Virus record (IMG/VR): IMGVR_UViG_3300037222_000084
Span: 22,894-86,893 of that record
Length of the DNA stretch: 64,000 nt
Source: a virus
Direction: 5' to 3' (one strand)
The notes beneath the pieces are model-generated. The model made no database searches. It saw only the letters and a list, made by a program, of their open reading frames with translations, and was not told the origin of the DNA. The translations under genes were made by a program, and so were the position numbers. Shown one piece after another: positions 9,092-25,642 of the stretch. How positions within the stretch are numbered: the first letter of the stretch is position 1; every line of letters starts with the position of its first letter.

Positions 9092-9544
9092 CTACTGAAG
9101 TAGAATTGTTCCAGAGCTATCTTCTAGCTCGAAAAAGTCGCCGTTTTCAAGCAATAGAAAGCTATCTTCAGGAGGAACGGGAAACTGACCGCTTTTGCTA
9201 CGTTTTATTACGATTCTGATTGGCCCTTTAGGAAAATTAGGCAGAAGGGTATGGTTCCAATACTCAAGCCAGAATTCCCCAAACAAATCAGCAGGTTGAA
9301 ACCTTTGACCCTGAATTAAATCAGGGAAATCCACATCATAGCCCAAGTTCGTATAGTACTTGTATATATCGTGTGGATTTACGTCACCAAACGTGGTAGC
9401 GCTGACGAAAGACACGTCAAGAGCTATGGCTGCTCGTATCTGCTTATCGGCGTCAGCTATAAACAATGCGTTATCAGCTGCTGTTAAAGCGGCTTTCTGT
9501 GCTTTTTGGGCCGCTAAAGCTGCGGAAGCTGGTATAGATGACAT
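9092..9544 (-). CDS. virion/tail-fibre-associated protein
   Basis: C-terminal FLLLENGDFFELEDSSGTILL motif typical of genes just before fibre genes; late motif upstream. Confidence 0.6.
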   Translation of the reverse strand: MSSIPASAALAAQKAQKAALTAADNALFIADADKQIRAAIALDVSFVSATTFGDVNPHDIYKYYTNLGYDVDFPDLIQGQRFQPADLFGEFWLEYWNHTLLPNFPKGPIRIVIKRSKSGQFPVPPEDSFLLLENGDFFELEDSSGTILLQ

Positions 9545-9628: not shown

Positions 9629-10129
9629 CTACGGCAGGCTGTTGCCTGGATCGCTGTCGTTGTTGTCTTCGTTGTAAGCAATCGTACCAATGTACGTGAT
9701 GTTCACTTTGGAAGTAGCTTTAGCGTTGTAGTTCGTGTTATTCGAGGTTGGAACACAACCCAAAATAGTCTCTAAAATTTCGCCAGTCTGACGGTCCACG
9801 ACGGTGATCGTGAAAGGGTCAAAGAGCAAAAGATCGCTGACTAATGGGAAGGCAGGCAAGGTGTGAACACCAGAGCCTACGACTCGAAAACCGGAACAGG
9901 TCACGTTGACAGCTTCACTCGAAGTTACTGCGATCTCGTCTGGGCTATAACGACCCAAGAGGAAGATGGGCTCAGTTCCTAAAGAACTAGCTACAGTACA
10001 GCTTTCGAAAATGCCGACTAGATGATTGTTCACGTATACTTTGGCCCGTGCTCCAGTTACGACTTTACCGCCTTTTGTAGCGGTATAGCCTTTCTGAAGT
10101 GGATTCGGGCTAGATGGATTTCCTGGCAT
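9629..10129 (-). CDS. tail tube protein
   Basis: Follows the sheath; VVTGARAKVY..LVG..EPIFLLG pattern, 166 aa. Confidence 0.8.
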   Translation of the reverse strand: MPGNPSSPNPLQKGYTATKGGKVVTGARAKVYVNNHLVGIFESCTVASSLGTEPIFLLGRYSPDEIAVTSSEAVNVTCSGFRVVGSGVHTLPAFPLVSDLLLFDPFTITVVDRQTGEILETILGCVPTSNNTNYNAKATSKVNITYIGTIAYNEDNNDSDPGNSLP

Positions 10130-10154: not shown

Positions 10155-12314
10155 TTAGCTTGCTGCCGATTGTTGAACTTGCGAGATGTTAATGCTGATC
10201 GGGATGAAGTAGATCGCAGTTGCAAGTTTGATTTCGACACTAACATCCATTTCTGGTGCCAGAATGGTGATTTTACCGTTCTTCCAGCCAAGTGGAGCGT
10301 CATCGCTAGCTGCGATAAGCTTCAGTTTCTTGTAACCTTCCATCTTTTGAGCCAAGTAGCTCAAACCAGTCGCAGCGTCTACATCAGCCAAAGACTGACC
10401 GACGAAAGCGGCTTGGAAGCTTGCAGCAAGGTCAAGAGCCAGAATGTCCGAGCAGTAAACCGCTTGGATGCTGTTGTACACGAAATTGGTGTCAAAACCG
10501 TAAGTAGTTTGATCGCTAACCCACAGACTTCCTGCGGTCGAAGCGGTCAAGATCAACATACCAGAAGACAGCGCGTCTTCAACGTCACCAGGACTTCCCG
10601 AATCAAATCCGGTAGGATCTGTGTAGGAAATAATGTTAGCCAACTTGTTACAGATAGACTTATAGAATCCACCGGCTTGCATACCAGCTGCGATTGTAGC
10701 CGTATACCAGGGTTGGAACTTAGTGATAACACCAACCGAGTTGACTTCTGTCGATCCTTGGAAAGCCAAGGAACAACGATAGCTGGCGAGACCCAGAGCC
10801 GCAGCTTTGCAATTCGCATACGTGTCTTGCATAGACAATACGCAGATGCGGTTGCGTTTGAGCTTAACAGTGCTGTACGCGATGCAATGGTTCTTGACCA
10901 ATGCGTTGGTAGCTGCGATAGTGTAGGTAGAGCCAGGATCGGTCAAACCAGCAGTAATGTCCTTCGATGCATCTTGCGAGAACAAAGGAACGATGATGTT
11001 TACTTGAACACCTGCAACTTGTTGCAGAGCATTCACGATGTCGATGGCCAGAGTTGGTCCTCTTGCTCCGCCAGACAGGAATGCCTGACCAGCCATAGGA
11101 AGTGGCAGACCTGCTGCGACAGCAGCGTTGAAAGCTAATGCAGACGAAGTGCCCAAAACTGATTGAAAAGTGTTAGCAGCATCTTTGATGCGTCCAGGCA
11201 TTGCGCTTGCAGCAGTAGAAGCGATACCTACAGCGGTAACGGCATCCAGTGCAGCGGTAGACTGTTGTTGAGCAGAAGGCGCTGCCTGAGCAGTGTAGCC
11301 TGGCTGAGCATTCAGATAAGCGGCCAAAATACCGATGGTAGCATAGTGAGTAAGATCTACACTCAACGCTGCACCGATTCCACCAGCGACAGTTGTCGTC
11401 AGCATACCAGTAGTCTGGTTGATTGTAATAGTTGCAGTCGTACCCTGATACCCAATATTGAGAGCGATATCTGGAACAACGTTAAGAGTCTCGTTTACGC
11501 CAGCAGAAGGATTGTTGATCTGGACTTCAACCTGTGCTTCATCAGAAGAAGCAGTCAGAGCAGCAACCAAACCAAGAGCGGCCAAGTCACCAGGAGTAGA
11601 GTCGATCAATTCTAATGCTTGTCCGTAACCATTGGCAAATGGAGTAGCGTCAACCACAGTCAACTGAATGCTAGTCGTTGGAGCAGCTGGATTAGCAGAT
11701 GCTACGATAGTTGCCGGTAACAGGCCGTTAAGCTCAGCTACAAGGTGAGGAACAGTGTCGTGCTGTGTAGGAGTCGCGCTAAGAGTGATAACCGTAGCAG
11801 CACCGCCGTTTAAGCGGAAGCTGAAAGACTGACCATTGAGCGGAGCGCCGAATGCAGGAATTGGAGAACCAAGAACGTTGGGAGCAACTTCTGCTTGAAG
11901 AGTGCTGATTTGATAAGAATAACCGTTTCCAGCAACTCCAGAATTCTGGAATACCAAACTACCGTATCCACCAGCGATAGCAGCAGATGCCTGAGCGCTC
12001 GTGTTAGTTTTAACGATATAGATAAGATTTGCAGATCCTTTGATGTTTGTATCGTTAGAAGGAGCGGTCAGCGCGTCGAAAGCATCTACGATTGGTCCAC
12101 TCGTATAGATGTTTTGAACCTTGGCCAGTTGATCTGGAGTAAAAGTGTTGTTTTTCAACGCGACTTGCTGATAGCTAGGACCGCCATCGGCTTCACCCAT
12201 GATTACGATAATGCCGGATTGACCTAAACCTACGGGTTGCGATTGCACCGTGATGTTAGGATATGCTCCAGGAATATTTGTATTTAATAAACTTGTAACT
12301 ACTCGTAGAGACAT
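10155..12314 (-). CDS. contractile tail sheath protein
   Basis: IPGAY...IIVIMGEADGGP N-terminus, LSGG, C-terminal AIYFIPISI. Confidence 0.9.
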   Translation of the reverse strand: MSLRVVTSLLNTNIPGAYPNITVQSQPVGLGQSGIIVIMGEADGGPSYQQVALKNNTFTPDQLAKVQNIYTSGPIVDAFDALTAPSNDTNIKGSANLIYIVKTNTSAQASAAIAGGYGSLVFQNSGVAGNGYSYQISTLQAEVAPNVLGSPIPAFGAPLNGQSFSFRLNGGAATVITLSATPTQHDTVPHLVAELNGLLPATIVASANPAAPTTSIQLTVVDATPFANGYGQALELIDSTPGDLAALGLVAALTASSDEAQVEVQINNPSAGVNETLNVVPDIALNIGYQGTTATITINQTTGMLTTTVAGGIGAALSVDLTHYATIGILAAYLNAQPGYTAQAAPSAQQQSTAALDAVTAVGIASTAASAMPGRIKDAANTFQSVLGTSSALAFNAAVAAGLPLPMAGQAFLSGGARGPTLAIDIVNALQQVAGVQVNIIVPLFSQDASKDITAGLTDPGSTYTIAATNALVKNHCIAYSTVKLKRNRICVLSMQDTYANCKAAALGLASYRCSLAFQGSTEVNSVGVITKFQPWYTATIAAGMQAGGFYKSICNKLANIISYTDPTGFDSGSPGDVEDALSSGMLILTASTAGSLWVSDQTTYGFDTNFVYNSIQAVYCSDILALDLAASFQAAFVGQSLADVDAATGLSYLAQKMEGYKKLKLIAASDDAPLGWKNGKITILAPEMDVSVEIKLATAIYFIPISINISQVQQSAAS

Positions 12315-12629: not shown

Positions 12630-13407
12630 TGCCCTTTTTTACAGGAGCAACAGCGGGTGCAGGTGCAGCTACTGTTTTTGGTTGACCCATAGCCGTTCCA
12701 ATGTTGGAGTTTGGCTGTTTCAGTTTCTTTTTAGCGCTCGTGTGGCCAATAAAATGAGCCAATTTAATGTGGCCCTTTACTTGCGGACTGGTTCCCCAAT
12801 CTGCGTTGTTACCTTCAGCTTGCTCATGAGGGTTGTTCTCGGGAGCAGGAGTAGCATTAGCGGCTTCAGGATGTGTACTAGCCGGTTTCATTGCAGATTC
12901 CTCTTTAGGAGGGTTCGAATGATCTGGCTTTCCTACTGGCGGAGCATTCTTTGTCAAATCTGCTTCGGCAATAGCTTTAAACAATTCTTCAGTTTTTTCA
13001 AGTTTGAAATACTGAACATTGTGCATACCAGAGGCGAATTCGCCAGTTTTTCGTAACAATTGATATCCAAATTCTTCTTCAGACTTATCCATTTTTTGGC
13101 TTTTCCCAGCAACTTTTTGTTTAGCGTCTTTACCGGATGTACTAAAATTATCTGGTTCATCTGGTGCTGCGCCACCGCCGCCACCGCCTGAACCTTCACC
13201 GCTTCCGCCTTCGCCTTCTGCTCCATCTGCTCCTGGGGTTGCTTCTGCTTCAGGATCTACTTCCGCATCTTCAGGTTTAGCTTTGGCCTTTAAAGATGGA
13301 ATAACAGCGGCCTTTGCCAAGCTATGCGCCTTAAGCAATTCTTCAGTCTTGGCTAAAACTGCCAAAGCTGCTTCTTTTGCGCTGTAAAATTTCTTGCTTT
13401 CGGCCAT
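12616..13407 (-). CDS. low-complexity putative internal head protein
   Basis: Many [LM]xK[STA]E-type motifs, late motif upstream. Confidence 0.6.
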   Translation of the reverse strand: MAESKKFYSAKEAALAVLAKTEELLKAHSLAKAAVIPSLKAKAKPEDAEVDPEAEATPGADGAEGEGGSGEGSGGGGGGAAPDEPDNFSTSGKDAKQKVAGKSQKMDKSEEEFGYQLLRKTGEFASGMHNVQYFKLEKTEELFKAIAEADLTKNAPPVGKPDHSNPPKEESAMKPASTHPEAANATPAPENNPHEQAEGNNADWGTSPQVKGHIKLAHFIGHTSAKKKLKQPNSNIGTAMGQPKTVAAPAPAVAPVKKGIALS

Positions 13408-13535
13408 GGTTTCCCTCTTGTACCTATCTAAGATTGTCTGGCTATCATACTCATCAGATAAGTAGTTGATTTCATTGAGTTTATTTTTTAAAGCCTGCTA
13501 AAGTATTGATTTCCATGTCTTATAATAAGATTGTC

Positions 13536-14540
13536 TTAGTCTTCACTGTTCTCGTCTATGGTGGTCCAGGTCTCTTCTGTGGCGTCTATAATAGGCGGCG
13601 TGTCAAGATTGCTTAAGATCTTGATTCCACTAGTGATTTCGCAACAATCGACACCCTTGATTATGGACGATTCGATGAATCTGCGTGGTAGCTTGATCCA
13701 GCTATTTTCTACTTGACCTGACAAAACGATCATTCTAAGATATGACAGTTCGCCACCGTCCCCACCTATATAATTGGGGTCCATCAGGATCTCGCCGCTA
13801 CTGATAGAGCTTTGGGCAAATCCGTTACCCTCAAGGAGACTTTCGCGGTATCTGAGGATTGCATACATTACAATGGAGTGCAGCCAAATCAAAGTCTGTA
13901 CGTCACCATGGGTTTGGCAGGTTATCGTGTATGAGTCCTGAAAGAAAGCATGCTCAACTCTAGCCTCGTAGAAAGGAAACTGAGGTATTACGGCAAGTTC
14001 GGTCGCATCGACGCCCAATCCTGGCTCGATAAAAAACATACCAGCAGATACGGCCAAAATAGGGTATCCATTGCCGTTTGCAGGATTTACAAGTACCATT
14101 CCAGGAGTAACCACTTCAAAACCAGCAGTGTTAGGGTCTATGCCGATTTCACCGGACGCTTGATCGTAGCTAGTAGGAACGAAAGGTTTTACTACGAAAG
14201 CAATCGGTTTGCCAATTTCCAAAGGCAAGAGCATTTTCTTGACCGTAGATAGGTCGGCCATGTGCTTCATCTCTGGTATCTCTGGGGTAGGCCCAGGAGT
14301 AATAGTTACACAAGGCAACTCATCTTTGTCGTTGCGAGGACGCATGTAGACGTTGATGTTGTTGTTCATGAACCATTCTTTAGCAGCATCTATTTGTTTT
14401 TGGCCGTACTTGTCGGAAATGTAAGGAATGGCCTTGAGGCTATCAAAGACGTGATCTAACAACCATGCGTTTTTGCGCATCTCATCCAGGCCTAGATCGA
14501 CCATAGTTTTTATAATTACGTCACCTTGAAAGATGCCCAT
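13536..14540 (-). CDS. tail completion/terminator-like protein
   Basis: Position upstream of the sheath; PR..DELPCVTI motif. Confidence 0.55.
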   Translation of the reverse strand: MGIFQGDVIIKTMVDLGLDEMRKNAWLLDHVFDSLKAIPYISDKYGQKQIDAAKEWFMNNNINVYMRPRNDKDELPCVTITPGPTPEIPEMKHMADLSTVKKMLLPLEIGKPIAFVVKPFVPTSYDQASGEIGIDPNTAGFEVVTPGMVLVNPANGNGYPILAVSAGMFFIEPGLGVDATELAVIPQFPFYEARVEHAFFQDSYTITCQTHGDVQTLIWLHSIVMYAILRYRESLLEGNGFAQSSISSGEILMDPNYIGGDGGELSYLRMIVLSGQVENSWIKLPRRFIESSIIKGVDCCEITSGIKILSNLDTPPIIDATEETWTTIDENSED

Positions 14541-15337
14541 TATTTACCGTTCCATTTGTCTACGATGCCAGGGAGGATTTTCTCTTCCCATTGGCGTATC
14601 GCTTCTTCCATGGCTTTATCCATGTATTTTTTAGCTTTCAGGCCAGGGTGTAGCCATTTGCCATCACTTGCAGGACCAGCAGAAACTGTGCGAAACGTAA
14701 GAATGTCTCTTCGAACGTTTCCAGTATTCTTGTCGATCTGCTGATAAATAGACAGCCCTTGTAGCCGTGGCGTGTTACCTTTGCCAGGTATTTTCATGCC
14801 AATGTTGCCACCCATAGTTCCGTCTTTTCTTTGATCTCTGAGGTTAACTCCCCATTTTAGATCGTGCAGTTTGCCAAGCTTAGGACTACCATCTTGATTA
14901 TATTCAATATTCTTATATGGAATTTTTTCACTTTTCAGTTTTCTTTTAATAGCATCAACCAAAAGCATCGTAGACGGTTGCGTTTGGGTTGGTTTTGTAT
15001 CATACTTGAAAGGTATAACCCTGTGGGTTTTGCCTTGCAGTAAATCTGGCTTCATATCGTGGGCAGTGAGTCCTTCTTCTATCCACATAGCTTTCTCATC
15101 AAGGGTAATTACGTACAGGCCTGGAGCAGAATCGTCTACGTCAGACAATGCTTCCATGTAGATATGCTGAGTCGAATTAAGTTTGTCGTCTCCACGCTGA
15201 GCTTCCATGGCAATCTGAGCACGAGTCAAAGTAGCAAGCTCGCGCATGGCACTATTTATGTCTGCCTCTACTTCTTTGGCAAACTCTTGAAATTGCGCTG
15301 CTATAGCATCAGCGTTTGCGCTAAGCTTTAGGCTCAC
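14540..15337 (-). CDS. neck/tail-completion protein (HK97 gp10-like)
   Basis: A.WIEEG..AHDMKP.LL; TFRTVS...WLHPG motifs. Confidence 0.6.
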   Translation of the reverse strand: MSLKLSANADAIAAQFQEFAKEVEADINSAMRELATLTRAQIAMEAQRGDDKLNSTQHIYMEALSDVDDSAPGLYVITLDEKAMWIEEGLTAHDMKPDLLQGKTHRVIPFKYDTKPTQTQPSTMLLVDAIKRKLKSEKIPYKNIEYNQDGSPKLGKLHDLKWGVNLRDQRKDGTMGGNIGMKIPGKGNTPRLQGLSIYQQIDKNTGNVRRDILTFRTVSAGPASDGKWLHPGLKAKKYMDKAMEEAIRQWEEKILPGIVDKWNGK

Positions 15338-15575
15338 GAGGCACCTTCTGAGGGTTTTCTTCTTTAATTGGCAATGGCTTCACTGGTACTCCAGTAGGAC
15401 TTTGCACCTTGCCGTCGCGCATAGTGATCCACCGAGTTTTCTTAGTAATCGGATCAATCACTTTCTTTTGACCTTTTTCATTAACAGCACCTTCCATGTA
15501 CGGCGTTCGCGCTACGTGTTGTGTTGTTTGAGAGGTCGGCAGTTTTCCAATGGGTTGCCCTATCGCCCCTGAAGC
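15321..15575 (-). CDS. -1 frame extension of the mCpol protein (or a separate ORF from ATG 15497)
   Basis: Open -1 frame from slippery C CCA AAG to TAG 15321 fills an otherwise empty gap. Confidence 0.55.
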   Translation of the reverse strand, partial: ASGAIGQPIGKLPTSQTTQHVARTPYMEGAVNEKGQKKVIDPITKKTRWITMRDGKVQSPTGVPVKPLPIKEENPQKVPREPKA

Positions 15576-17557
15576 TTTGGGTCGGCACCACTATCTGGAT
15601 GGGCAGGATACAAATTGTTGTAGTCTGGATTTCCTCCAGCTGCTTCAGTCTGAGCTTGCGGATCGTTGGTTTGATCTTCTGGCATTCCACCAGCAGGTTG
15701 TCCTTCTAGGACGCCTTCTTCAGGAGATAAAATGTTTGGAGATTCTTCTACTACGCCAGACGGCTGAGCAGCTTGGTCTTGGTCTAACCCAAGAAGCTTG
15801 GCCATTTCTATCATCGCTTTAAGCATAGCGATAGAAGACGCGTATAATTGAGGTGCTTCTAATTTAGCACGCTCAAGTATCATCTTACAGCCTTTGAATC
15901 CTTCCAAAGCTTCGCCAACCATAGCAACAACTTTTTCTCGTTTGATGCTGTCGGCATGACTGTCCAACCCTTGTTGCAGCACAGACGTAACATCTGGAGC
16001 ACCATCTGGTTGTTCGCCAAGTCCCATATCAGTGGGAGTATTCTGGCTATAGCTTTCTGGACGGCTAACGTTGCCTTCCATGTTAGTACCGCCAGGCAGG
16101 TCTGCGTCGTCAGCTTGACCTTCAGCGCGTAATGGAACTTGGTCAGCTCCAAGTGCGTCGATTTCATTTGTAATGCTTTCTATAGAATCGCTATTTTCTG
16201 GAGTACTGGTAGTTCCAACAGGAGGAGCAAACGGTTCTTGATATTCTTGAGCAGCAGGCCCGCCTTGTGAGTTTTCAAGAATGATGTTCTGATTGGATTT
16301 TGAATCAGTAGGTGCGGCCAATTTCGAGGGTTGCGAAGAAATAGCGGCAGGCTTGTCCATTCCTGGACGAGCAAGATCCTGACCGGCATAGTTCTGGCTA
16401 TCTTGAGTGGTAGGCAGTAATTCAGTAGAGGGATCGTTTGGACTTATGTTTTGATCGTCTCCGCCCATAGACTGAGCAGCTACTTGACAATAAGGACAAT
16501 CCTGTTCGTGACCTTCAGCATTAGGATCATGCGAGCCCATTTCCTGGCAATAAGGACAATCGTCAGTGTGACCTTCAGCATTAGGATCGTGATTCATTAC
16601 TGCGCAATAAGGACAATCATCGGCATGTCCTTCGGCATTAGGATCGTGCATTTGTACACAATAAGGACAGCTTTCGTCTTGAATGCCCTGAGCACTCAAT
16701 TCTTGACAATAAGGACAGTCGTGCTGTTCAGGAGCGGGCGCGGCCTCAACGGTAACATCTTCGTCTTTAGTTAGATTCGGTTTTTGTTGTTTCAGAGCGT
16801 GCATGGTATCATGATGGCGAGACATAGCCGTAGCTTTGTCACCAGCACGGGCATTTAGCCCAGCAGATGAAGCGCCAAGCAATTTTTTACTATGAGTAGA
16901 TTGATCTTTGTGATGATCGCTAGTAAAACCGGATAAACTGTCGTGCGTGCCCTTAGCTCTTGTTCCTGGAACCTTTTCGCCAGGTTTATCCATGTGCTGC
17001 GGCATCTTATGTTGATCTGGTCTAGGAGATGCCTTAGCCAGTTCGTCTTTAGTGATTGATTTGTCTTTGCCGTCCATAACCGTATCCTGTCCTTCAGGCC
17101 GCAAATAAGCGTCACCCTGTTTCTTTTCTTGTTCAGAAGCTGTCCCGTCTTCTAGTTTCAATTGAACTTGCTGAATTTCCTGTTCAATCCTGGGATCGTA
17201 GATGACTACTTGGTTCTTACCTCTGAATTTTGCCACTATTAGAGACTTGCCTGCCTCAGATAAAGTTTTACCTATACCTACAGACATAGTAAGCCTAGTA
17301 GCAAAATGATAATCCGTTCTCAACTGTTCAATATGATCTAGCGCTTCATGAGGTAAATGGAAGGTCCCTTCGTCACCGCCGCCAGATATAATTCCGCCGT
17401 TGTGCTCCTGAGCCCATTTTTTGACTATCTCGTGGCCAAGATTTATTCTTTCAGAGACTTCGCTCAGGGCAGCTGGATCATTGGACAATATAGCACGACC
17501 AACAAGCCTTCCAGCATTGTCACCGTCGTATGCTAATATCCACTGAAAATTATCCAC
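15560..17557 (-). CDS. mCpol (minimal CRISPR polymerase) domain protein with CPYC repeats and acidic tail
   Basis: N-terminal ~120 aa: AYDGDNAG, IISGGGDEG, TMSVGIG.TL.EA..L..AK..GKN. Confidence 0.8.
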   Translation of the reverse strand: MDNFQWILAYDGDNAGRLVGRAILSNDPAALSEVSERINLGHEIVKKWAQEHNGGIISGGGDEGTFHLPHEALDHIEQLRTDYHFATRLTMSVGIGKTLSEAGKSLIVAKFRGKNQVVIYDPRIEQEIQQVQLKLEDGTASEQEKKQGDAYLRPEGQDTVMDGKDKSITKDELAKASPRPDQHKMPQHMDKPGEKVPGTRAKGTHDSLSGFTSDHHKDQSTHSKKLLGASSAGLNARAGDKATAMSRHHDTMHALKQQKPNLTKDEDVTVEAAPAPEQHDCPYCQELSAQGIQDESCPYCVQMHDPNAEGHADDCPYCAVMNHDPNAEGHTDDCPYCQEMGSHDPNAEGHEQDCPYCQVAAQSMGGDDQNISPNDPSTELLPTTQDSQNYAGQDLARPGMDKPAAISSQPSKLAAPTDSKSNQNIILENSQGGPAAQEYQEPFAPPVGTTSTPENSDSIESITNEIDALGADQVPLRAEGQADDADLPGGTNMEGNVSRPESYSQNTPTDMGLGEQPDGAPDVTSVLQQGLDSHADSIKREKVVAMVGEALEGFKGCKMILERAKLEAPQLYASSIAMLKAMIEMAKLLGLDQDQAAQPSGVVEESPNILSPEEGVLEGQPAGGMPEDQTNDPQAQTEAAGGNPDYNNLYPAHPDSGADPKLQGR
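16483..16722 (-). repeat. five CPYC motifs including three HDPNAEGHxxDCPYC units
   Basis: Visible in protein and DNA (caataaggaca x5; cattaggatc x3). Confidence 0.9.
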
Positions 17558-17870
17558 GCTTCCCTCTGAGTACTTCTAACAACATCTCAATATTTTCTGG
17601 GTCCCAGCCTTTACCGAATCGAACCTTCACGCCATCTTCTGATTTTGTAAGGTATACTTTACTATTCATATCGCTGCCCATACAAACACAACCAGAGTAT
17701 GCTTCATTTTTGAAGATACTTTGACCACAGTCTGGACACGACACTTGGTCGTTCTTAGAAAGAGATACCTGATACTCTTTCTTATGTAACTTATGCTTTC
17801 TACCTTCCAAAAATTCATTAAGAGGTGAACTCTTTTTGGATTTATCTGGACGGTCTAATGCAGACGACAT
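17550..17870 (-). CDS. small Zn-ribbon protein
   Basis: CPDC...CVC; LTKSE motif. Confidence 0.65.
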   Translation of the reverse strand: MSSALDRPDKSKKSSPLNEFLEGRKHKLHKKEYQVSLSKNDQVSCPDCGQSIFKNEAYSGCVCMGSDMNSKVYLTKSEDGVKVRFGKGWDPENIEMLLEVLRGKRG

Positions 17871-17883
17871 CTGAACGCTCCGA

Positions 17884-18390
17884 TTAAGTATTAGGCTCGT
17901 TTACAGGAGCGCCCCAAGGAGCGGTTGTTTGCTGCGGATTTTGCGAGTTGTTATGCGGTTGAGCTTGAATGAATGTGGGATCGTCAATGATAAACACAAG
18001 CAAGGTAGCAGCAGTCGATGCAACCCAGTTCCATTGAGCAGCAGCAAGATATGTCCAAGCATTTGGCTGACATGGAACGCCAACGAAAACGTTGGTTCCA
18101 GAAACCTGCACAGCACCAGGAGCTTGAGGCGTCATAGTGTTATCTCCAACAGTCACAGCGCCAACGGCACCGGCATTGTTGTAAATAGCAAGGTTGAGGC
18201 CTGCACTTGGCAATATACGAGGAGTCGAAGCGTCGGTTGTAAAACCAGCAGCACCGTTTCCGAGCGGAATCAACGCACGTCCTACTTCTGAGGATTTTCG
18301 TGATCCAGCCTTTTCACTCCAGCTTAGAAGCTCAATAGCCGAAGGATCGCGGGATTGGTCGCCTGGTATTTGTCTGTTCTTAATTTGCAT
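17884..18390 (-). CDS. virion structural protein
   Basis: Beta-rich, late motif upstream, SD GGAG. Confidence 0.6.
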   Translation of the reverse strand: MQIKNRQIPGDQSRDPSAIELLSWSEKAGSRKSSEVGRALIPLGNGAAGFTTDASTPRILPSAGLNLAIYNNAGAVGAVTVGDNTMTPQAPGAVQVSGTNVFVGVPCQPNAWTYLAAAQWNWVASTAATLLVFIIDDPTFIQAQPHNNSQNPQQTTAPWGAPVNEPNT

Positions 18391-18436: not shown

Positions 18437-19402
18437 TTATTCGTCATCTTTGCCATATCCGTCGCCATATGCGTCCATTTCGACCTTGACCCCGTATTTA
18501 TTGGGATTTTGGGCTTCAATGGGAGCTGCATCTTTGCGTTTAGGATCTACTGGCCTGTTTTGATTCAATGCGTCACCACGGTTTTGGTTGTGATACATGT
18601 ACTCGCGCTGGGCTATAGCGTGGTAGGGCATACGTTGAGGGGTTCGCCCATTACCATCGGTGACGTTTGTAACCCGTACTTCTTTCAATAAAATTGTGAT
18701 GTACCAATAAGCATTATAGAGGTATCTTACTGAATATACTCGACCTTTTCCAGTATCTGGATCAATACCAGGATTTCTACCACCGTCTACCCAACGAATA
18801 TTGCCGTCTTTTGTTATGCTATAGTCTACGCCTTGCATGTATTCGAAGCCACGGCTGTCGATCAGCGGTACTTCCATTTCTTCAATTTTGAACATGGGGA
18901 CATTGTCTTGTCCAGCGATGTAGTTCATTTTCTGAGGATTTGACACTTTCACGTCAACGGTTGGGTCTGAAACGTAAATTCTATCGCCAGGTGACAGGTA
19001 AATGCGCTTGCCGTCAGCGAGGCCTAAGTTATTGTAAAAACGAGGCATTACGAGCTTGCTCTCAGACGGATCTAAGATGCTACCACTAGCCCTATTTCTA
19101 GTTCGTGTGTTGTCAGTCATGGTAGCCGTAAAGCGACCAGCCAAAGTGTAAATATTGCCGTTTGACGTAATCGTGTCTACACCGTCACTTCTGCGGTAGT
19201 CACCACGGTCCTTTTGGCCAATAGGACTAGGCATGCCCTTATAGTGAAAGAATTCGACGCCCAAACCGACCACAAAGTCTTCCAATCTATCAAGGTCGAA
19301 AGACTCTTGAATATAGGGAGCAAAGGCTGGAATGGTATCCACCTGTATGTCGCCACTAGGGTCTAGTGGTTTATTTGGACTGTCAGATCCGCTATCGGAC
19401 AT
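18437..19402 (-). CDS. head-closure/neck protein
   Basis: G.DY.I...GNI.W...P....G.VYSVRY motif typical of large-myovirus neck proteins. Confidence 0.55.
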   Translation of the reverse strand: MSDSGSDSPNKPLDPSGDIQVDTIPAFAPYIQESFDLDRLEDFVVGLGVEFFHYKGMPSPIGQKDRGDYRRSDGVDTITSNGNIYTLAGRFTATMTDNTRTRNRASGSILDPSESKLVMPRFYNNLGLADGKRIYLSPGDRIYVSDPTVDVKVSNPQKMNYIAGQDNVPMFKIEEMEVPLIDSRGFEYMQGVDYSITKDGNIRWVDGGRNPGIDPDTGKGRVYSVRYLYNAYWYITILLKEVRVTNVTDGNGRTPQRMPYHAIAQREYMYHNQNRGDALNQNRPVDPKRKDAAPIEAQNPNKYGVKVEMDAYGDGYGKDDE

Positions 19403-20083: not shown

Positions 20084-21148
20084 TTATTTTTCCTTGTCAT
20101 AGGCATCTTTGATTTTTTTAACATGCCAATGTTCGTCTATGTTCTTTTTTTCTTTCTGAGCACGGTATGTACCCTTTACACCTTCAAGCCATGCGTACCC
20201 GATTTTGTTTGGATTTTGGCCAAAATGGTGTTCTAATCGAGCCAAGTGTTTCTGCGCTACAGTGTCTTCTAATCCAGGGTTGTCGTGCATGTACCTACGC
20301 ATATCGTCACCGCGAAGCGCCATGCCCTTAGCATATTTGGCTTTTAGGTCCGTGTTCATGTGGATAGTATCGCGTATAGTGGAAGGCATTAGGGCGTACT
20401 TTCCATATGCGCTCTCGCCTGTGTGCATTCCACCAGCTGGCTTATGGTTGGTCATCTTGCCGTTTTGACTTTCTACGGTTGCGATAGTATTGAGCATGCG
20501 CTGACTGCTATACGAAGGCTGATGCTGTTGAATACTGGCCGGTTCTCTAGGAGGCGAAGCATCTTTGATTGTAGGGCTAGACTGCATAGCGCCCATTACG
20601 CCAATTGCTGCGGCAACGTGTTTGATGCCTTTGTCTAATTTTTCAGATTTTTCAAACGTGTGAACAGGGTTATTTGCGCCGTGTTCAAGAGTCAGAGGAC
20701 CAAACTCGATATCGTCGGCGGTTACGCCGTTTTCTTTAAGGTCATCGTAGAGCACCTTGTCGATGGTTACATGGGTCATGAAATTTTTGTAAACATTACC
20801 TACGTGTCCGTAGTGATCGTAAAGAGCCTTGTATTTTGGAGGCAAACCTTCTATCTTGAGCATGTAGTAGTCTAGCTTAGACACTTCCGCCGTAAAGATG
20901 ATTGGTTTGAACGTCAAATCCTTAGGATCTGGAGAGCAAATATCATGCTCCTTGACGTACTCTTTCATTTCATCTAAATCAAATTCTTTGGGATTACCAA
21001 ATATTTTGAGAGACATGTGCAGAGGAATATCGTCAACAAGGGTAGCGCGACCTTTGATTTTTACGCAGAACAGTACGTCACAGCCTTTTTTGGCTTGTTC
21101 CTTATAACTGCTGTGTACTCCGACGCCACGCTTCTCTGCCGCGCCCAT
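20084..21148 (-). CDS. 2H phosphoesterase (Acb1-like) fused to a lysozyme/transglycosylase-like domain
   Basis: LHMSL and THVTI 2H motifs ~80 aa apart; linker FEKSEKLDKG; IATVES..G / AYGKYALMPST lysozyme-fold motifs. Confidence 0.7.
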   Translation of the reverse strand: MGAAEKRGVGVHSSYKEQAKKGCDVLFCVKIKGRATLVDDIPLHMSLKIFGNPKEFDLDEMKEYVKEHDICSPDPKDLTFKPIIFTAEVSKLDYYMLKIEGLPPKYKALYDHYGHVGNVYKNFMTHVTIDKVLYDDLKENGVTADDIEFGPLTLEHGANNPVHTFEKSEKLDKGIKHVAAAIGVMGAMQSSPTIKDASPPREPASIQQHQPSYSSQRMLNTIATVESQNGKMTNHKPAGGMHTGESAYGKYALMPSTIRDTIHMNTDLKAKYAKGMALRGDDMRRYMHDNPGLEDTVAQKHLARLEHHFGQNPNKIGYAWLEGVKGTYRAQKEKKNIDEHWHVKKIKDAYDKEK

Positions 21149-21981
21149 TAGAAACTCCCGACTAGATACCTATTAGAGAAAACGCTTCTTAGCTGTTTTT
21201 TCAAGGTTTCTCGTTTTTTCTCAAGATCCTCAATGCGTCTAACATATACGTTAGGACCAGGACCACTTGACGATTGAGAGATACCATCTTGACTTTGCGA
21301 CTGTGAGTTAAAAATGAATGTAGCTGCGATCATGCTTAAGACAGATATTGCTGCAATTGTACCGATAAGTTCGTTAACCGCTACTGGCACTTGACCTTCT
21401 GTATTGGATAAACCAGCGGTGTAGTTGATCTGCCAATATGCTGGAACCCAATTGAGTCCATCCATAACGGTCAAAAATGCAATACCCGCATTTCCAACTG
21501 ATCCGCCAACTTGATTGACGCCGTATGCTGCCAAAAGAGGAATAACGTTGATTAAGCGTTTTGAGAAATTTGTACATTCTACCCAGGTAGGAGGAATACT
21601 GAAAATGTTGTTGTTGTCCGCGCTGACAATTGCCAGCGACTCCAAACTTATGATTGGGCCTTTCTCGGCCATGATATGAATATACGACTTGTATAAAGCA
21701 TAGTCAAATGGAACTTTGTGCTGAAAGGCTTCACGCAGGATAGTAGATCCTATCATAAGCTCCGCTTCATTCATTGCCCAGTTTAACTGTTCTGTAATTT
21801 CTATATCTGTGATGACATCGCCGTTTCTGAATCTCAACGGAATACCTTTGAGAAACAAACGCTTGAACTTATCAGCGGCAAGCAAAGGCTCGCATCTAGT
21901 CAAAAGACCAGACGTTTGCTGAGCGTGAACCGGATAAACGGCTGTACCTGAGGTTTTTACCCCTGTTTCTCTAAAATCCAT
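21148..21981 (-). CDS. head-tail adaptor/neck protein
   Basis: P.YWQINYTAGL...VP..; SQS..DGISQS motif; start likely ATG 21981. Confidence 0.65.
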   Translation of the reverse strand: MDFRETGVKTSGTAVYPVHAQQTSGLLTRCEPLLAADKFKRLFLKGIPLRFRNGDVITDIEITEQLNWAMNEAELMIGSTILREAFQHKVPFDYALYKSYIHIMAEKGPIISLESLAIVSADNNNIFSIPPTWVECTNFSKRLINVIPLLAAYGVNQVGGSVGNAGIAFLTVMDGLNWVPAYWQINYTAGLSNTEGQVPVAVNELIGTIAAISVLSMIAATFIFNSQSQSQDGISQSSSGPGPNVYVRRIEDLEKKRETLKKQLRSVFSNRYLVGSF

Positions 21982-22430
21982 TAGCAAGACCCACAAGTCG
22001 AGACAAGCTCGACAGCCATAGCATTCATGAGCACGAACTTTCTAGTTACACTGCCTTCTTTCAGGGTGAAAAATAGGTTTCCGCTATTGACAGCCTGGGT
22101 GCCAGAGAGAGATACTGCCCATATAGAACTGTCACAATCGTCTGGTTGAAATGCCTGCACTACGAGTTGTTTACTGTCGTCGATTGAGCAAAATGTTACT
22201 TGCGCAGAAGCTGGACTGTTCACGCCACAACCGGCCATGTAGCGAAGGCTGGACGTTGGACCATTGGAGTTTTGTCCGTTAGATCCGTTCATATTGTTGA
22301 TATTTTGGTCTAAGTCAACGAACTGGAAATACAGGGTATTTGGATCTCCCAGACGGGTTTTCCATTGCAAGGCGTAACCAAACTGGTTGACATTTGCATA
22401 ATTTACAATCAAGTTTGCGGATAATCTCAT
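21981..22430 (-). CDS. virion structural protein
   Basis: First gene after a late motif. Confidence 0.55.
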   Translation of the reverse strand: MRLSANLIVNYANVNQFGYALQWKTRLGDPNTLYFQFVDLDQNINNMNGSNGQNSNGPTSSLRYMAGCGVNSPASAQVTFCSIDDSKQLVVQAFQPDDCDSSIWAVSLSGTQAVNSGNLFFTLKEGSVTRKFVLMNAMAVELVSTCGSC

Positions 22431-22534: not shown

Positions 22535-22945
22535 ATGTCGGAAGATAAGAAAGCCCCCGTTTTAGGCACTAACCCAAAAGACCTACTTGGGATCAAGAAA
22601 GTCCAGTTAAATCTGGTGCCTGCCTCAAGCATCATATACCAGGCATTGGCGATGGAAGACGGAGCTAAAAAGTATGGCCCTTACAATTGGCGAGAAAACA
22701 AAGTAATTGCGAGCATTTACGTCGCAGCTGCTATGCGTCACCTGATGCAGTGGTACGATGAAGGCGAAGAGTTGGCAGAAGACAGCAAGAAGCCACACTT
22801 AGCTCACGCCTTGGCCTGTATAGGCATCATAGTGGACGCCCTGGAGACTGGCAACCTATCTGACGACCGCCCTGTGCCTGGCTCAGCGTCTAAATTGATC
22901 GCTAAGTGGGAACAAATAAAAAAGGCCCAGTTACCCAAGCCTTAG
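22535..22945 (+). CDS. dATP/dGTP diphosphohydrolase domain protein (DUF5664-like)
   Basis: NPKD..G..K..L.LVP, GA.KYG.YNWR, AAMRH, DS..PHLAHA.AC. Confidence 0.85.
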   Translation: MSEDKKAPVLGTNPKDLLGIKKVQLNLVPASSIIYQALAMEDGAKKYGPYNWRENKVIASIYVAAAMRHLMQWYDEGEELAEDSKKPHLAHALACIGIIVDALETGNLSDDRPVPGSASKLIAKWEQIKKAQLPKP

Positions 22946-23005: not shown

Positions 23006-24889
23006 TTAGCTAGTAATTACGTCGTCATCCAGCGTAACTGCGGTCTGGGCGTATAATGCGCCATGGACAGTTGCAGTTGTTTGAACTGCAATGTTCGTTT
23101 GGCCCAAGATGACGCCTTCGAAAACTGAGCTAACTCCAAGAGTTACAGCGCCACTCACTTGCCAGAAGATGTTCTGTGGCAGCAATCCGCCAGCCAAAGT
23201 TATGTGTACAGAAGTGCTAAGGCCTAAAGTGCCAGCTACCTGCATGATATACACGTCGCTTGGTCCACCGTTAAGGGTGAGCGCGGTTGGGATAGTAACA
23301 CCAGTAGTCCATTTGTACAGACCAGGGGTAAGCGACAATCCGCCAAGGTTTCCGCCACCAAGATTTGTGTGGTCAGGGCTAGTACGTCCAGCCGCATCAG
23401 TATACGCTGCTTGCATATCGCTAACAGCCGTAGTCAGATTGGATGGAGTAGGTGCCGTGTAATCTGCTGCGAAGATATGGCCAGTAACGTTTGGAGCAGT
23501 AGAGAATGTTCCGCTACCATCCATAGTTAAAGTAAATCCGGTGATCGCTGTTGCAGCGATTGGGCTGACTGCCATTTGGCCAGTGATTGCTGAACCAGAG
23601 GTATCGCTGATACCAGACTCAGACAAGATTCTGTAGTTTCCAGCGGTAGCCAGATTTACAGCGGCGGGACTGTTGCCAATGACATAAGCTGCGCTTGCGA
23701 TTGCAGAATTTGTGTCACCAGCGTGGACTGCCAATGCTTTGAGAGTTTCGCTAGAAGCTACAGACACAGGGCCTGAGTACAGAGTGCTTCCAGTGGTAGG
23801 AGTCGAACCGTCAGTAGTGTAGTAAATGGTCGATCCAGCTGTAACCGTAGAAATCGTAACCGATTGTATTCCAAGATATGATCCAGCGACTGGCGACATT
23901 GTTGGAGTTGCAACCGTAATTCCACCAGAAATAACATATGCAACGCTAGAAACGTTCGAGTTCAAGAAACCAGATGCAACCGAGATAGCTTTAACGGTTT
24001 CGCTAGAGCTTACGGAAATTGGTCCCGTATATAGGGTGCTTGCCGTGGTAGGAGTCGATCCATTAGTAGTGTAATAAATAGCGGCACCTACGGTAAGCGA
24101 AGAAAGGCTAACCGTTTGTGAGCTAGAATAAGTTCCAGCTGGAACTGAAGCGGCTGGAGCAGCTGCTTGATTAAGTACTGCGGTAGCTACAGTCGTAACG
24201 ACTGCGCCTAACACGGTAGCTGTTAAACCAACAGTATCAGCTGCAATAGCGGCTTGCGTATCAGCAGCGATAGTCGCAGCAGAGTCGCCTGAATTAATAG
24301 TGACTTCGACGCTTACTTGGCCAGGTAGAGTGGGATCTGTGTTTGATCCACCAGTAACATTGTACCAAACTACGTAAGTGTTTGCGTTACCAGCATTGTA
24401 AAGAAGAAAAGATGCGCCAGGACCAGTTGAAGGAAAAAGGCTACCGGCAGGCAAAGTAGACTGTACTTGTTGCCATCCGGTGTTTCCATACGTAGAAACA
24501 TTCAGAGAAAAACCAGCAGGCATAGACTGATTCTTTGGCTTGTTAGTGAGTTTGATAGGATTCGGAACAAAAGGAATAAGGTTTCCGATATTACGAGCAG
24601 CAAGAGCGGAAATTCCACCTGCTACGTTGGCTATGAATTCAGCCGCTAAAAGAGCGTTGGAAAAACCGTCTACCATTACTCTAATATCGTGTACGGAAAG
24701 GGCTTGTGTTCCAAGCATAGCTGCCTGGATGTTATCTGCAACTTTTTCATCGCCCATAGCAATGACCAATCGTTTCATGGTATAATGCGACAGTATGGAG
24801 CCATTAACGACGGCAAGGGCCAATTCGTTGCCAGCGATCTTACTAGTCAGCATGTCTACGAGATCGGCGGTTGTCTTTGTGGTTAGCAT
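23006..24889 (-). CDS. virion-associated ice-binding protein (DUF3494) with two CHB_HEX_C/FN3-associated repeats
   Basis: IYYTT.GSTPT..STLY.GP x2; AVNL.TAG.Y.IL, AYTDAAGR, LTPGLYKW, NIFWQV, GALYAQTAVTLD. Confidence 0.9.
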   Translation of the reverse strand: MLTTKTTADLVDMLTSKIAGNELALAVVNGSILSHYTMKRLVIAMGDEKVADNIQAAMLGTQALSVHDIRVMVDGFSNALLAAEFIANVAGGISALAARNIGNLIPFVPNPIKLTNKPKNQSMPAGFSLNVSTYGNTGWQQVQSTLPAGSLFPSTGPGASFLLYNAGNANTYVVWYNVTGGSNTDPTLPGQVSVEVTINSGDSAATIAADTQAAIAADTVGLTATVLGAVVTTVATAVLNQAAAPAASVPAGTYSSSQTVSLSSLTVGAAIYYTTNGSTPTTASTLYTGPISVSSSETVKAISVASGFLNSNVSSVAYVISGGITVATPTMSPVAGSYLGIQSVTISTVTAGSTIYYTTDGSTPTTGSTLYSGPVSVASSETLKALAVHAGDTNSAIASAAYVIGNSPAAVNLATAGNYRILSESGISDTSGSAITGQMAVSPIAATAITGFTLTMDGSGTFSTAPNVTGHIFAADYTAPTPSNLTTAVSDMQAAYTDAAGRTSPDHTNLGGGNLGGLSLTPGLYKWTTGVTIPTALTLNGGPSDVYIMQVAGTLGLSTSVHITLAGGLLPQNIFWQVSGAVTLGVSSVFEGVILGQTNIAVQTTATVHGALYAQTAVTLDDDVITS

Positions 24890-24946: not shown

Positions 24947-25642
24947 TTACTCTTCTGCTAAATAGCAGATGCTGCCATCTTGCACCACTTCTCTGGTAGC
25001 TCGAATAGGACGCTTGCTGGCTGGGTAATACATTCGATCTAAGCACGAAGCGTTAACAAAAGTGGTAGGACCAACGTATTCGATCCCACGGGCTTCGTGA
25101 ATATGACCAAAAACATGTAATTTCACCTGTGTTTTCAATATCTTATCCATCAAATCTTGGCAACCAGCACGCTCTTTTGGAGTACCGTCAACATAGGAAA
25201 CAACGTCTAAGAATCCAGCTGGAGGACCATGCGTAATGAGCAATTCGGTATCATCTGGAATCATGTCCCAGTGACGTTTAATATCGGGTCCACGATCACG
25301 GTTAAAGGCCCAGCTATGAAACCAAGGTTGGACTGGCGAGCCCCAAATCTTGACGCCTTCTAGGTCTACCCCAGAATCGTTCAAAAGAATAATGTTGCGA
25401 TCTTGGCATGCTTCAGCGAGCAACGCAGGAGTGCGCTCAAAACCCCAATCGTGGTTTCCAGGGACTAGTATGGTATAGTCATAGTCCTGTTTTGCATACC
25501 AGTCTAAAAATGTAAGAATTTCAACTTCACTACCACGAAGACTGACATCTCCAGAGTGAATCAAAATATTGCCACCGTCACACTTGAATCTTTCGTGCTG
25601 ATTATGAGTATCTGATAGTAGATCTATGATTAATTTTTCCAT
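24947..25642 (-). CDS. calcineurin-like metallophosphoesterase (MPPED/239FB-like)
   Basis: SDTH, HSGD, GNHD, THGPP, FGHIHE motifs. Confidence 0.9.
   Translation of the reverse strand: MEKLIIDLLSDTHNQHERFKCDGGNILIHSGDVSLRGSEVEILTFLDWYAKQDYDYTILVPGNHDWGFERTPALLAEACQDRNIILLNDSGVDLEGVKIWGSPVQPWFHSWAFNRDRGPDIKRHWDMIPDDTELLITHGPPAGFLDVVSYVDGTPKERAGCQDLMDKILKTQVKLHVFGHIHEARGIEYVGPTTFVNASCLDRMYYPASKRPIRATREVVQDGSICYLAEE

Follow-up and report, generated by a model that had tools for sequence, protein, structure and literature searches.

An apparently intact mCpol domain on a conserved late-module protein of large Mx1-like soil phages, with a probable −1 frameshift at the 3′ end of its gene

The 64,000-nucleotide (nt) stretch of viral DNA considered here, termed the window, covers positions 22,894 to 86,893 of the IMG/VR virus record IMGVR_UViG_3300037222_000084 and is the last 64 kb of that 86.9-kb record, whose completeness is 53% by CheckV. 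On its minus strand, at 15560..17557, lies a 665-amino-acid open reading frame (ORF; P0001) with a GTG start, whose product carries an mCpol palm domain near its N-terminus; to our knowledge, mCpol has so far been described solely as the "decoy maker" of bacterial Panoptes. The start of the mCpol gene overlaps the stop of the gene upstream by 8 nt, and the coding unit runs on in the −1 frame down to 15321, beyond the end at 15560 assigned to it in an earlier sequence-only reading of the window. The parts of the unit and the gene that precedes it are as follows.

17550..17870, minus strand: upstream gene, 106 amino acids here, with a CxxC...CxC motif; always adjoins the mCpol gene
15560..17557, minus strand: zero-frame ORF, 665 amino acids (P0001), from the ORF list and its translation
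17183..17536, minus strand: mCpol palm domain, residues 8-125 (Pfam 49 bits; PDB E 3e-8)
17099..17182, minus strand: helix-like extension, residues 126-153, ending in the near-invariant K146...A150-Y151-L (conservation map)
17075..17088, minus strand: candidate internal start, the ATG of Met161 with AGGA 7 nt upstream (Met and Shine-Dalgarno enrichment)
16733..17098, minus strand: His/Lys-rich linker, residues 154-275, with ITKDE, LAKAS and LTKDE; lineage-specific
16478..16732, minus strand: Cys array with five CPYC, residues 276-360 (motif count and repeat search)
16148..16477, minus strand: acidic, weakly conserved region rich in Pro, Gly, Ser, Gln, Asn and Thr, residues 361-470 (conservation map and composition)
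15782..16147, minus strand: conserved C-terminal core, residues 471-592 (conservation map)
15563..15781, minus strand: variable acidic tail, residues 593-665, ending ADPKLQGR (conservation map)
15575..15581, minus strand: slippery heptamer C_CCA_AAG, in phase, 19 nt before the zero-frame stop TAG (15562-15560)
15321..15575, minus strand: −1-frame extension, 84 amino acids (P0255), from alignment to P0034

The sequence-only reading had recognized mCpol from the pattern YDGDNAG, GGGDEG and TMSVGIG...AK..GKN, and profile and structure databases bear out that the domain is a real mCpol. The Pfam family PF18182 (mCpol) matches residues 8-120 over profile positions 2-114 of 114 (E 9.2e-13, 49 bits, cut-off 26.4), and the match reaches 53.4 bits in a six-frame search; the Cas10 palm2 (24.8 bits) and GGDEF_GdpP families both stay under their cut-offs for this protein. 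In a PDB sequence search, the solved mCpol/OptS chains 9nwn_B (E 3.3e-8) and 9mnr_A (E 7.3e-8), and also 9pd0, match residues 8-125. The three motifs occupy residues 10-16 (YDGDNAG), 59-64 (GGGDEG) and 90-115 (TMSVGIG...AKFRGKN), and the catalytic motifs are D11/D13 and G60-G61-D62-E63. The alignment to 9nwn_B is ungapped, phage residue n pairing with residue n-5, and D11 and D62 therefore correspond to Asp6 and Asp57, which the available text of PMC12657218 gives as putative active-site residues of mCpol/OptS. S35 and N39 of the phage domain align to S30 and N34 of the same chain, residues described in the accessible part of PMC12657230 as providing the ATP selectivity of mCpol. An mCpol encoded on a plasmid of Sulfitobacter is 29% identical to the phage domain (E 5e-12), and adjoins an effector with a Cap15 receptor and a CD-NTase, which is the published Panoptes layout.

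Conservation of the catalytic Asp residues extends to the phage homologues. Among 243 domain-bearing relatives, D11 is kept in 237 (five have Asn and one is truncated), D13 and D62 in 242 each, G61 and K110 in all 243, Glu or Gln at position 63 in 242 and S35 in 227; position 39, the counterpart of N34, is variable (N 72, D 55, E 34, Q 18, A 18, S 12). The domain of the window retains all the residues known to bear on catalysis and on the selection of ATP, and the enzyme is apparently intact. It could be argued that the domain is only a structural or nucleotide-binding module and makes no signal, as in Myxococcus phage Mx1, the closest cultured phage (169.6 kb; capsid protein 52% identical). 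The Mx1 orthologue (WNM70340.1, annotated as hypothetical) keeps the fold as a sub-threshold mCpol signal of 21-24 bits in Pfam and has lost D13, GGDE, K110 and K114, so that the protein works there without catalysis. The retention of the catalytic Asp, GGDE and Lys residues here and in 237-243 of the 243 relatives is, however, hard to explain without selection for chemistry, and a purely structural role has a very slight likelihood. A real, active cyclase on a conserved late-module protein is very likely.

The remainder of the protein was mapped by conservation across 120 aligned relatives. The extension at residues 126-153 is specific to the phage family and lies past the end of the solved mCpol chains, which are 125-131 amino acids long. 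In the linker His makes up 7% of residues 154-275, and residues 170-270 occur in almost no other member (alignment occupancy ~0). Exactly five CPYC motifs follow (residues 281, 297, 315, 334 and 354), four of them with His-x(1-3)-D in front. The array rests on a tandem repeat of 57 nt (16488-16645, 2.7 copies), which makes three of the motifs. The H-x3-C-x2-C-x4-H spacing of the repeated units suggests small metal-binding knuckles. Across the family the number of CxxC motifs per protein ranges from 0 to 8, with a mode of 5 and PY, QY and KY as the commonest inner pairs, and a His stands no more than six residues upstream of 374 of the 539 motifs. A glutaredoxin-like redox site was considered for CPYC and rejected, as no thioredoxin fold is present (Pfam Thioredoxin_2 E 0.67, with no passing stretch). 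Segments 276-360 and 361-510 each have a net charge of −18, and the whole-protein model in the ESM Atlas is poor (mean predicted local distance difference test score 0.48). These counts, charges and model scores agree with the sequence-only description of a His-rich linker, five CPYC motifs and an acidic disordered region behind the mCpol domain.

The best conserved segment of the protein is the core at residues 471-592, which is present in all relatives, mCpol-less ones included. Its NVSRP and DMGL motifs come before a helical hairpin (residues ~515-592), and six of its columns are invariant. No relative of this core was found in the PDB (the best match, a designed helical repeat, has E 0.29) or among the Pfam and PHROG families, and the ESM Atlas returned helical-hairpin look-alikes only (TM score < 0.5).

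A word-indexed search yielded 121 proteins of the family, 113 with the mCpol domain (that of the window counted) and eight without it. When a profile built from the first 155 residues was searched against 1.84 billion representatives of clusters at 50% identity, 1417 clusters matched with E <= 1e-3, of which 888 reached <= 1e-10 and 458 reached <= 1e-30. The best 150 of the 1417 matches are mostly 350-990 amino acids long, carry the domain at or near the N-terminus and are all of phage type, and a hidden Markov model (HMM) of the C-terminal core also matches 105 of 125 newly returned representatives. When the whole protein was searched against a collection of phage proteins there was no match at E 1e-5, and a DNA search found none; this negative is weak because Mx1, which is in that collection, has a distant orthologue, found by a local tblastn run without the low-complexity filter (E 9e-10). 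A search for short stand-alone relatives returned seven proteins, most of them fragment-like. In a further protein, P0207 (3516 amino acids), profile positions 7-51 of mCpol are matched in 31 separate stretches.

The position of the gene is fixed. In all 42 IMG/VR loci compared, homologues of the genes at 14540-15337 and 13536-14540 lie directly downstream, and the tail sheath gene follows further downstream in 40 of the 42; a homologue of the gene at 17550-17870 lies directly upstream in all 38 loci that reach that far. In Mx1 the gene order of the module is kept, with two extra genes inserted. Together with the Pfam and PDB matches, this synteny upholds the earlier claim of a phage mCpol fused to a non-enzymatic protein within a late, virion block.

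The mCpol domain itself is accessory. One 100%-complete relative of 170.6 kb has no mCpol match anywhere, and its orthologue begins at the Cys array. In a core-domain tree of 225 tips, rooted on a short Mx1 segment and weak because the domain is short, the eight forms without mCpol all lie within a subtree of 21 tips, and seven of them group in a single clade (local support 0.92). The Mx1 orthologue lacks the Cys array and keeps the hairpin and the C-terminal extension. Fifty-two members are of unusual length, all with mCpol; among them GNAT was added in three, NUDIX in one, ParB_N in one and DUF5661 in four, and their PHROG matches are to these added domains only. The alignments and the tree present mCpol as an N-terminal add-on, or cargo, to an ancestral, position-fixed core. 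Its co-option from host defence, as the sequence-only reading proposed, is unproven.

At the 3′ end of the gene, the −1 frame overlaps the main ORF by 31 open nt, and the heptamer C_CCA_AAG lies inside the overlap. The 84-amino-acid product of the −1 frame aligns from its residue 1 to the in-frame C-terminus of P0034 with 69% identity (E 3e-36). Only the last 58 amino acids of the extension have an ATG of their own (ORF 15321-15497); this short ORF matches the extreme C-terminus of 37-39 of 253 proteins (the family and the first 125 new representatives), and the homology of the extension begins upstream of its ATG. In this phage the extension can be reached only through a −1 shift at C_CCA_AAG, which would give a predicted long isoform of 661 + 84 = 745 amino acids. 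According to the available text of a review (PMC5009743), C_CCA_AAG is highly shift-prone in Escherichia coli.

Comparison across loci points in the same direction. Distinct loci of the −1 type number 13, that of the window included, and each carries the heptamer XXXAAAR in phase no more than 40 nt from the zero-frame stop; the remainder of these genes gives an in-phase background of 7 per 6694 codons. The extension is in frame in 18 distinct loci, one of which has XXXAAAR near the stop, and in the +1 frame in six loci, none of which has the heptamer. In four loci the HMM detected no extension; among them is Mx1, whose extension is divergent but can be seen in frame. Among the −1-type loci, ten of the 13 have a hairpin a few nt downstream of the heptamer, and for six of these ten z is <= −1.87. 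A point on the other side is that in the window the RNA after the heptamer folds no better than shuffled sequences (z +0.54), as is also the case for the two nearest relatives (+1.27 and +0.61).

A plain gene split or an assembly error between 15560-17557 and 15321-15497, with no recoding, would account for the lack of a predicted stable hairpin in the window and for the ATG of the 58-residue ORF. Contigs of runs X1 and X4 read the frameshift site with no difference or gap, and both runs may be source samples; run X5, from permafrost, holds about half of the sampled words and does not cover the site. Against such a split, the extension has 26 conserved residues upstream of that ATG for which there is no separate start codon, the ATG itself is not preceded by a Shine-Dalgarno sequence, and a shifty heptamer recurs in phase at the same place in 13 of 13 independent split loci, where the background is about one per 1000 codons. 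A split or error is therefore very improbable, and programmed −1 frameshifting at C_CCA_AAG is, on this comparative sequence evidence, likely. In the six +1-frame loci (L014, L016, L023, L029, L032 and L040) the frames overlap by 110-218 nt, and five of the six share ...AGGAGG-(12-13 nt)-CCCCACAGC(A/G)(G/A)TAA at the zero-frame end, which could be a +1 recoding signal or something else.

A second level at which the protein may vary is an internal start at Met161. Orthologues without mCpol begin a few residues before the first CxxC, and 65 of 89 fused relatives have a Met between AYL and the first CxxC, where 37 would be expected from the Met frequency of the following region, an excess that does not translate into a probability because the sequences are related. 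In 24 distinct genes with available DNA, Shine-Dalgarno cores (at least 4 nt, placed 4-13 nt upstream) precede 12 of the 22 junction ATGs, meaning those no more than 30 codons past AYL, as against 23 of 329 other internal ATGs. A point that counts against this start is that conserved Pro-Glu-Gly codons overlap the Shine-Dalgarno-like words in front of Met161, and the enrichment may therefore reflect constraint on the protein. Initiation at Met161 may yield an isoform without mCpol, with the same starting point as the orthologues that lack the domain. In P0124 (175 amino acids, from a 173-kb contig), the mCpol domain ends a few residues past the Met after AYL and an unrelated tail follows; it could be a genuine split at the point proposed for the internal start, or else a frameshift error.

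The linker had also been read as the site of proteolysis: in the sequence-only reading the enzyme belongs to a structural polyprotein and is released by the head protease at ITKDE, LAKAS and LTKDE. In its full form this would be a head-internal polyprotein that the prohead protease cuts between K and D of ITKDE and LTKDE and between K and A of LAKAS, freeing a stand-alone mCpol in the capsid. A large prohead-protease-like gene does lie nearby (29022-31007, plus strand), with a weak match to the PHROG head maturation protease and a match to the annotated prohead protease of Mx1; a long disordered linker behind the enzyme would be accessible to a protease; and T4 Alt is a packaged and injected enzyme in the available text of PMC5512222. 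The three words, at residues 168, 173 and 262, all fall in the lineage-specific insert that is absent from nearly all relatives, however, and in the closest relative without the insert ...SITKAED runs straight into the first CPYC, so that the two TKDE words resemble the borders of inserted sequence. The general class [LMIFV]xK[SAGTD] is not enriched, with five occurrences in the protein compared with 2.6 +/- 1.5 in shuffled versions, 217 of 2000 of which reach five; two of these words lie within the mCpol core and the hairpin, both of them conserved and apparently folded. Of 112 fused relatives, only 12 show such a word in the stretch from mCpol to the first CxxC, and on these counts the protease words were rejected as a signal of the family. 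The gene, moreover, lies among the genes just upstream of the tail sheath, separated by some 8 kb from the capsid gene and by some 11.5 kb from that of the protease. Processing at these words is unsupported because they are bound to the insert, are not enriched and are rare in relatives; the claim of release by the head protease is accordingly not upheld, and the polyprotein explanation as a whole is quite improbable. Cleavage may still occur at other sites in the protein.

The linker segment is variable in the population. Contigs of a DNA run (X4, 48 nt) and of an RNA-library run (X8, 257 nt) join 17041 back to 16760 with 12 letters shared at the joint, and this junction is a population variant, a 282-nt tandem duplication of the linker segment between the two TKDE words. 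The contig of X8 extends over ~256 nt of the linker region and is not proof of transcription, because RNA libraries can contain DNA. The runs that contain sequence of this phage are peat and permafrost metagenomes. In the protease-like protein itself, residues 553-580 form an FlgM-like stretch that scores 23.2 bits, slightly under the Pfam cut-off of 25.

The surroundings of the gene are those of a late virion module, and the phage is a large soil phage, an Mx1-like myophage of lytic type. The genes that define the module are as follows.

4185-9080: 1631-amino-acid ORF at the position expected for a tape measure
9629-10129, same strand as the mCpol gene: virion structural protein (PHROG match)
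10155-12314, same strand as the mCpol gene: tail sheath (PHROG match)
18437-19402, same strand as the mCpol gene: virion structural protein (PHROG match)
21148-21996, same strand as the mCpol gene: tail fiber (PHROG match)
25723-27123, same strand as the mCpol gene: major head protein (PHROG match)

The upstream gene at 17550..17870 (minus strand) encodes ~310 amino acids in most relatives as compared with 106 here, and its product matches no family in a Pfam search, which gave weak zinc-ribbon hints only. Several other products of the structural block carry domains of their own. The gene at 23006-24889 (minus strand) encodes 627 amino acids with Chitobiase C-terminal and Fn3-associated repeats followed by an ice-binding-like domain (Pfam 222 bits); that at 22535-22945 (plus strand) encodes a protein with a dATP/dGTP diphosphohydrolase N-terminal domain (82 bits); and that at 24947-25642 (minus strand) encodes a calcineurin-like metallophosphoesterase (39 bits) that is kept in many related loci. 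In Mx1 a separate GGDEF "nucleotide cyclase" is encoded at 17173-17904 (Pfam 38 bits), two genes after a 1239-amino-acid "putative prohead protease" (13002-16721).

Five genes upstream of the mCpol gene, at 20084-21148 (minus strand), is a product whose N-terminal ~180 amino acids contain two motifs of the form H-x-S/T-x, HMSL at 44 and HVTI at 126. Both motif His residues are invariant in 21 orthologues. The best PDB matches of the orthologue profile are 1vdx_A/1vgj (E 0.034) and 2fyh_A (E 0.072), aligned on both motifs; we take these structures, which the search named only as hypothetical or transport proteins, to be LigT-like 2H phosphoesterases. The product has no Pfam or PHROG match, and it is a candidate 2H cyclic-nucleotide or RNA-end phosphoesterase in the mCpol module.

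Partners of the kind found in host systems were searched for in the phage and its relatives. The Cap15/2TM-beta receptor domain (PF18153) was not found in the 86.9-kb record or in five 100%-complete relatives, in a search for which a plasmid served as positive control (70.8 bits), and SAVED was not found in the same five relatives. The earlier statement that the gene has no CARF, 2TM-beta or Cas partner thus holds for 2TM-beta/Cap15, the part that these searches covered, while the CARF and Cas families lay outside them.

The explanation that best accounts for these observations, and that is on balance to be preferred, is a modular late-module protein of an Mx1-like myophage that carries mCpol as cargo, is probably recoded and may act against host immunity. 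Its core would comprise the CxxC/His array, an acidic disordered spacer, the helical hairpin and the ~85-amino-acid C-terminal extension, with mCpol as N-terminal cargo. The domain would dimerize like bacterial mCpol and make cyclic di- or oligo-adenylates from ATP without a trigger. Several isoforms would be produced, with or without mCpol (through the Met161 start) and with or without the extension (through the frameshift), so that a minority of subunits would bring the enzyme into an assembly built by the core. If that assembly were part of the virion, or travelled with it, the cyclase would be present at or soon after DNA entry, where its product could interfere with host cyclic-nucleotide immunity. 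Association of the protein with the virion is an evenly balanced proposition.

Placement and translational coupling show late co-expression only, and an alternative to be weighed here is a late cytoplasmic protein that is never packaged, its cyclase acting late in lysis timing, superinfection exclusion or against late-acting defences. In this alternative the core would be an assembly factor or chaperone released before maturation, like frameshifted tail chaperones, which are not known to be present in virions. A frameshifted two-isoform design is typical of assembly chaperones such as lambda G/GT, and the mCpol gene would share it; the core is largely disordered with a short helical hairpin, and no structural PHROG matches the protein. 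On the other side, ParB-like, NUDIX and GNAT cargo, which are types listed for injected polyvalent proteins, fit a delivered protein better, and the canonical chaperone slot between tube and tape measure is occupied by another gene (9092-9544). A protein confined to the cytoplasm is possible, though it falls well short of probable.

As for what a virion-associated cyclase would do, the most economical proposal is a counter-guard, in which the phage delivers or makes its own mCpol and this enzyme synthesizes the inhibitory cyclic adenylate with which Panoptes-type systems hold their membrane effector off. That ligand would keep the guard effectors silent while nucleotide-degrading phosphodiesterases of the phage, or its sponges, remove the alarm nucleotides of the host. 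This fits the published logic, in which loss of the ligand triggers the guard (PMC12657218, PMC12657230 and PMC13577387, as far as their available text goes), and it also fits the candidate 2H phosphoesterase. An anti-guard role in general is nevertheless doubtful, and the specific counter-guard mechanism is to be held as somewhat more doubtful still.

Several further points weigh against the preferred explanation. No sponge (Acb2-family Pfam) and no GGDEF was found in the 53%-complete record, and the mCpol domain and the core are both without a PHROG match. Location among structural genes is no proof of packaging, and the Mx1 genome announcement (PMC10720576) contains no proteomics. The mCpol domain is dispensable: one clade has lost it, and in Mx1, the sole relative in culture, it is dead. 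Evidence on the host consists of three short contigs in metagenome-assembled genomes (MAGs) and a phylum scan for one MAG and gives nothing firm; in the phylum of the MAG that holds a related contig, two of 131 genomes have an mCpol match, and one of the two is that same MAG.

In a large clade of soil and peat phages of ~155-177 kb, which has at least 458 clusters at 50% identity, an mCpol with apparently intact chemistry is a regular feature, whereas the cellular mCpol systems are described as relatively rare in the accessible text of the Panoptes papers. If the enzyme is active, phages would also write cyclic-nucleotide signals, beyond erasing and sponging them, and there may be a viral answer to the guard logic of Panoptes. 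Were the counter-guard mechanism true, the phage enzyme would be the first synthase from a virus to make an immune-silencing second messenger, seated on a virion-module protein with its dosage set by an internal start and a −1 frameshift. The family offers intact, dead and deleted versions of the enzyme on one scaffold, a clear recoding site and a scaffold that accepts other enzymes, and it is therefore a practical system for the loading and dosing of enzymatic cargo by phages.

With regard to the literature, no mention of a phage-encoded mCpol was found in the texts available, the supplementary tables and the 2015 paper that defined mCpol being outside the search. That definition is reportedly due to Burroughs et al., and phage members could be listed there. 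The accessible portions of PMC12657218, PMC12657230, PMC13577387, PMC13712596 and bioRxiv 10.64898/2026.09.14.751636 do not mention a phage mCpol.

At its 3′ end the gene resembles phage −1 frameshift genes in having C_CCA_AAG before the stop, a conserved −1 extension, in-frame orthologues and a hairpin in most relatives. Programmed −1 frameshifting occurs in morphogenetic genes such as those of the lambda G/GT tail chaperones and the T7 10A/10B capsid. Shift sites of the form X_XXA_AAG are among those reviewed in PMC5009743, to the extent of its available text. Unlike G/GT and 10A/10B, the mCpol gene is off the tube/tape-measure position, is unrelated in sequence, has some relatives of the +1-frame type, and is known from sequence alone.

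The lambda C protease and Nu3 scaffold form a nested pair, and T4 Alt and P1 DarB are packaged enzymes. Alt and Dar are mentioned in the portion of PMC5512222 that was available. As with C and Nu3, an enzyme-bearing long form and an enzyme-free short form would share an assembly domain, and few copies of the enzyme would be built into a structure consisting mainly of the short form. The difference from that pair is that the Met161 start is deduced from Met and Shine-Dalgarno enrichment only.

A broader parallel is with the polyvalent proteins of phages and plasmids (Iyer, Burroughs, Anand, de Souza and Aravind 2017; PMC5512222). These multidomain proteins, for which packaging and injection have been proposed, combine enzymatic "weapon" domains, with GGDEF, 2H, ParB-like and nucleotide-metabolism domains among them in the available text; the word "mCpol" occurs 0 times in that text. 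Like them, the mCpol protein is encoded among late virion genes and bears variable enzymatic cargo (mCpol, GNAT, NUDIX or ParB_N) on a shared scaffold. Unlike them, its anchor is not MuF-, portal- or DarB-like but an unannotated core of Cys array, acidic spacer and hairpin, most members carry one enzyme, and a frameshifted C-terminus is outside that concept.

The closest comparison is with OptS/mCpol of Panoptes (9mnr, 9pd0 and 9nwn; PF18182), which comes as type I with a 2TM-beta OptE and type II with CARF-TM. The phage protein has the same palm domain over its full length, D11/D62 at the positions of Asp6/Asp57 and the ATP-selecting Ser, and its chemistry is therefore probably the same, namely constitutive synthesis of cyclic adenylates by a dimer. 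The surroundings differ, in that the phage gene is not in a defence island, no 2TM-beta/Cap15 receptor partner was found in six phage records (SAVED was searched for in five), and the domain is fused to a non-enzymatic protein of ~540-620 amino acids. Stand-alone cellular mCpol proteins, whose layout the plasmid examples illustrate, are ~120-130 amino acids long and often lie beside CBASS, in contrast to the 665 amino acids of the phage protein (745 with the frameshift). The phage domain also differs from OptS in its near-canonical GGGDEG, a motif (GGDEF) that OptS nearly lacks in the accessible text of PMC12657218, and in the extra conserved helix at residues 126-153. The role of the phage mCpol is most likely on the opposite side of the conflict from that of Panoptes.

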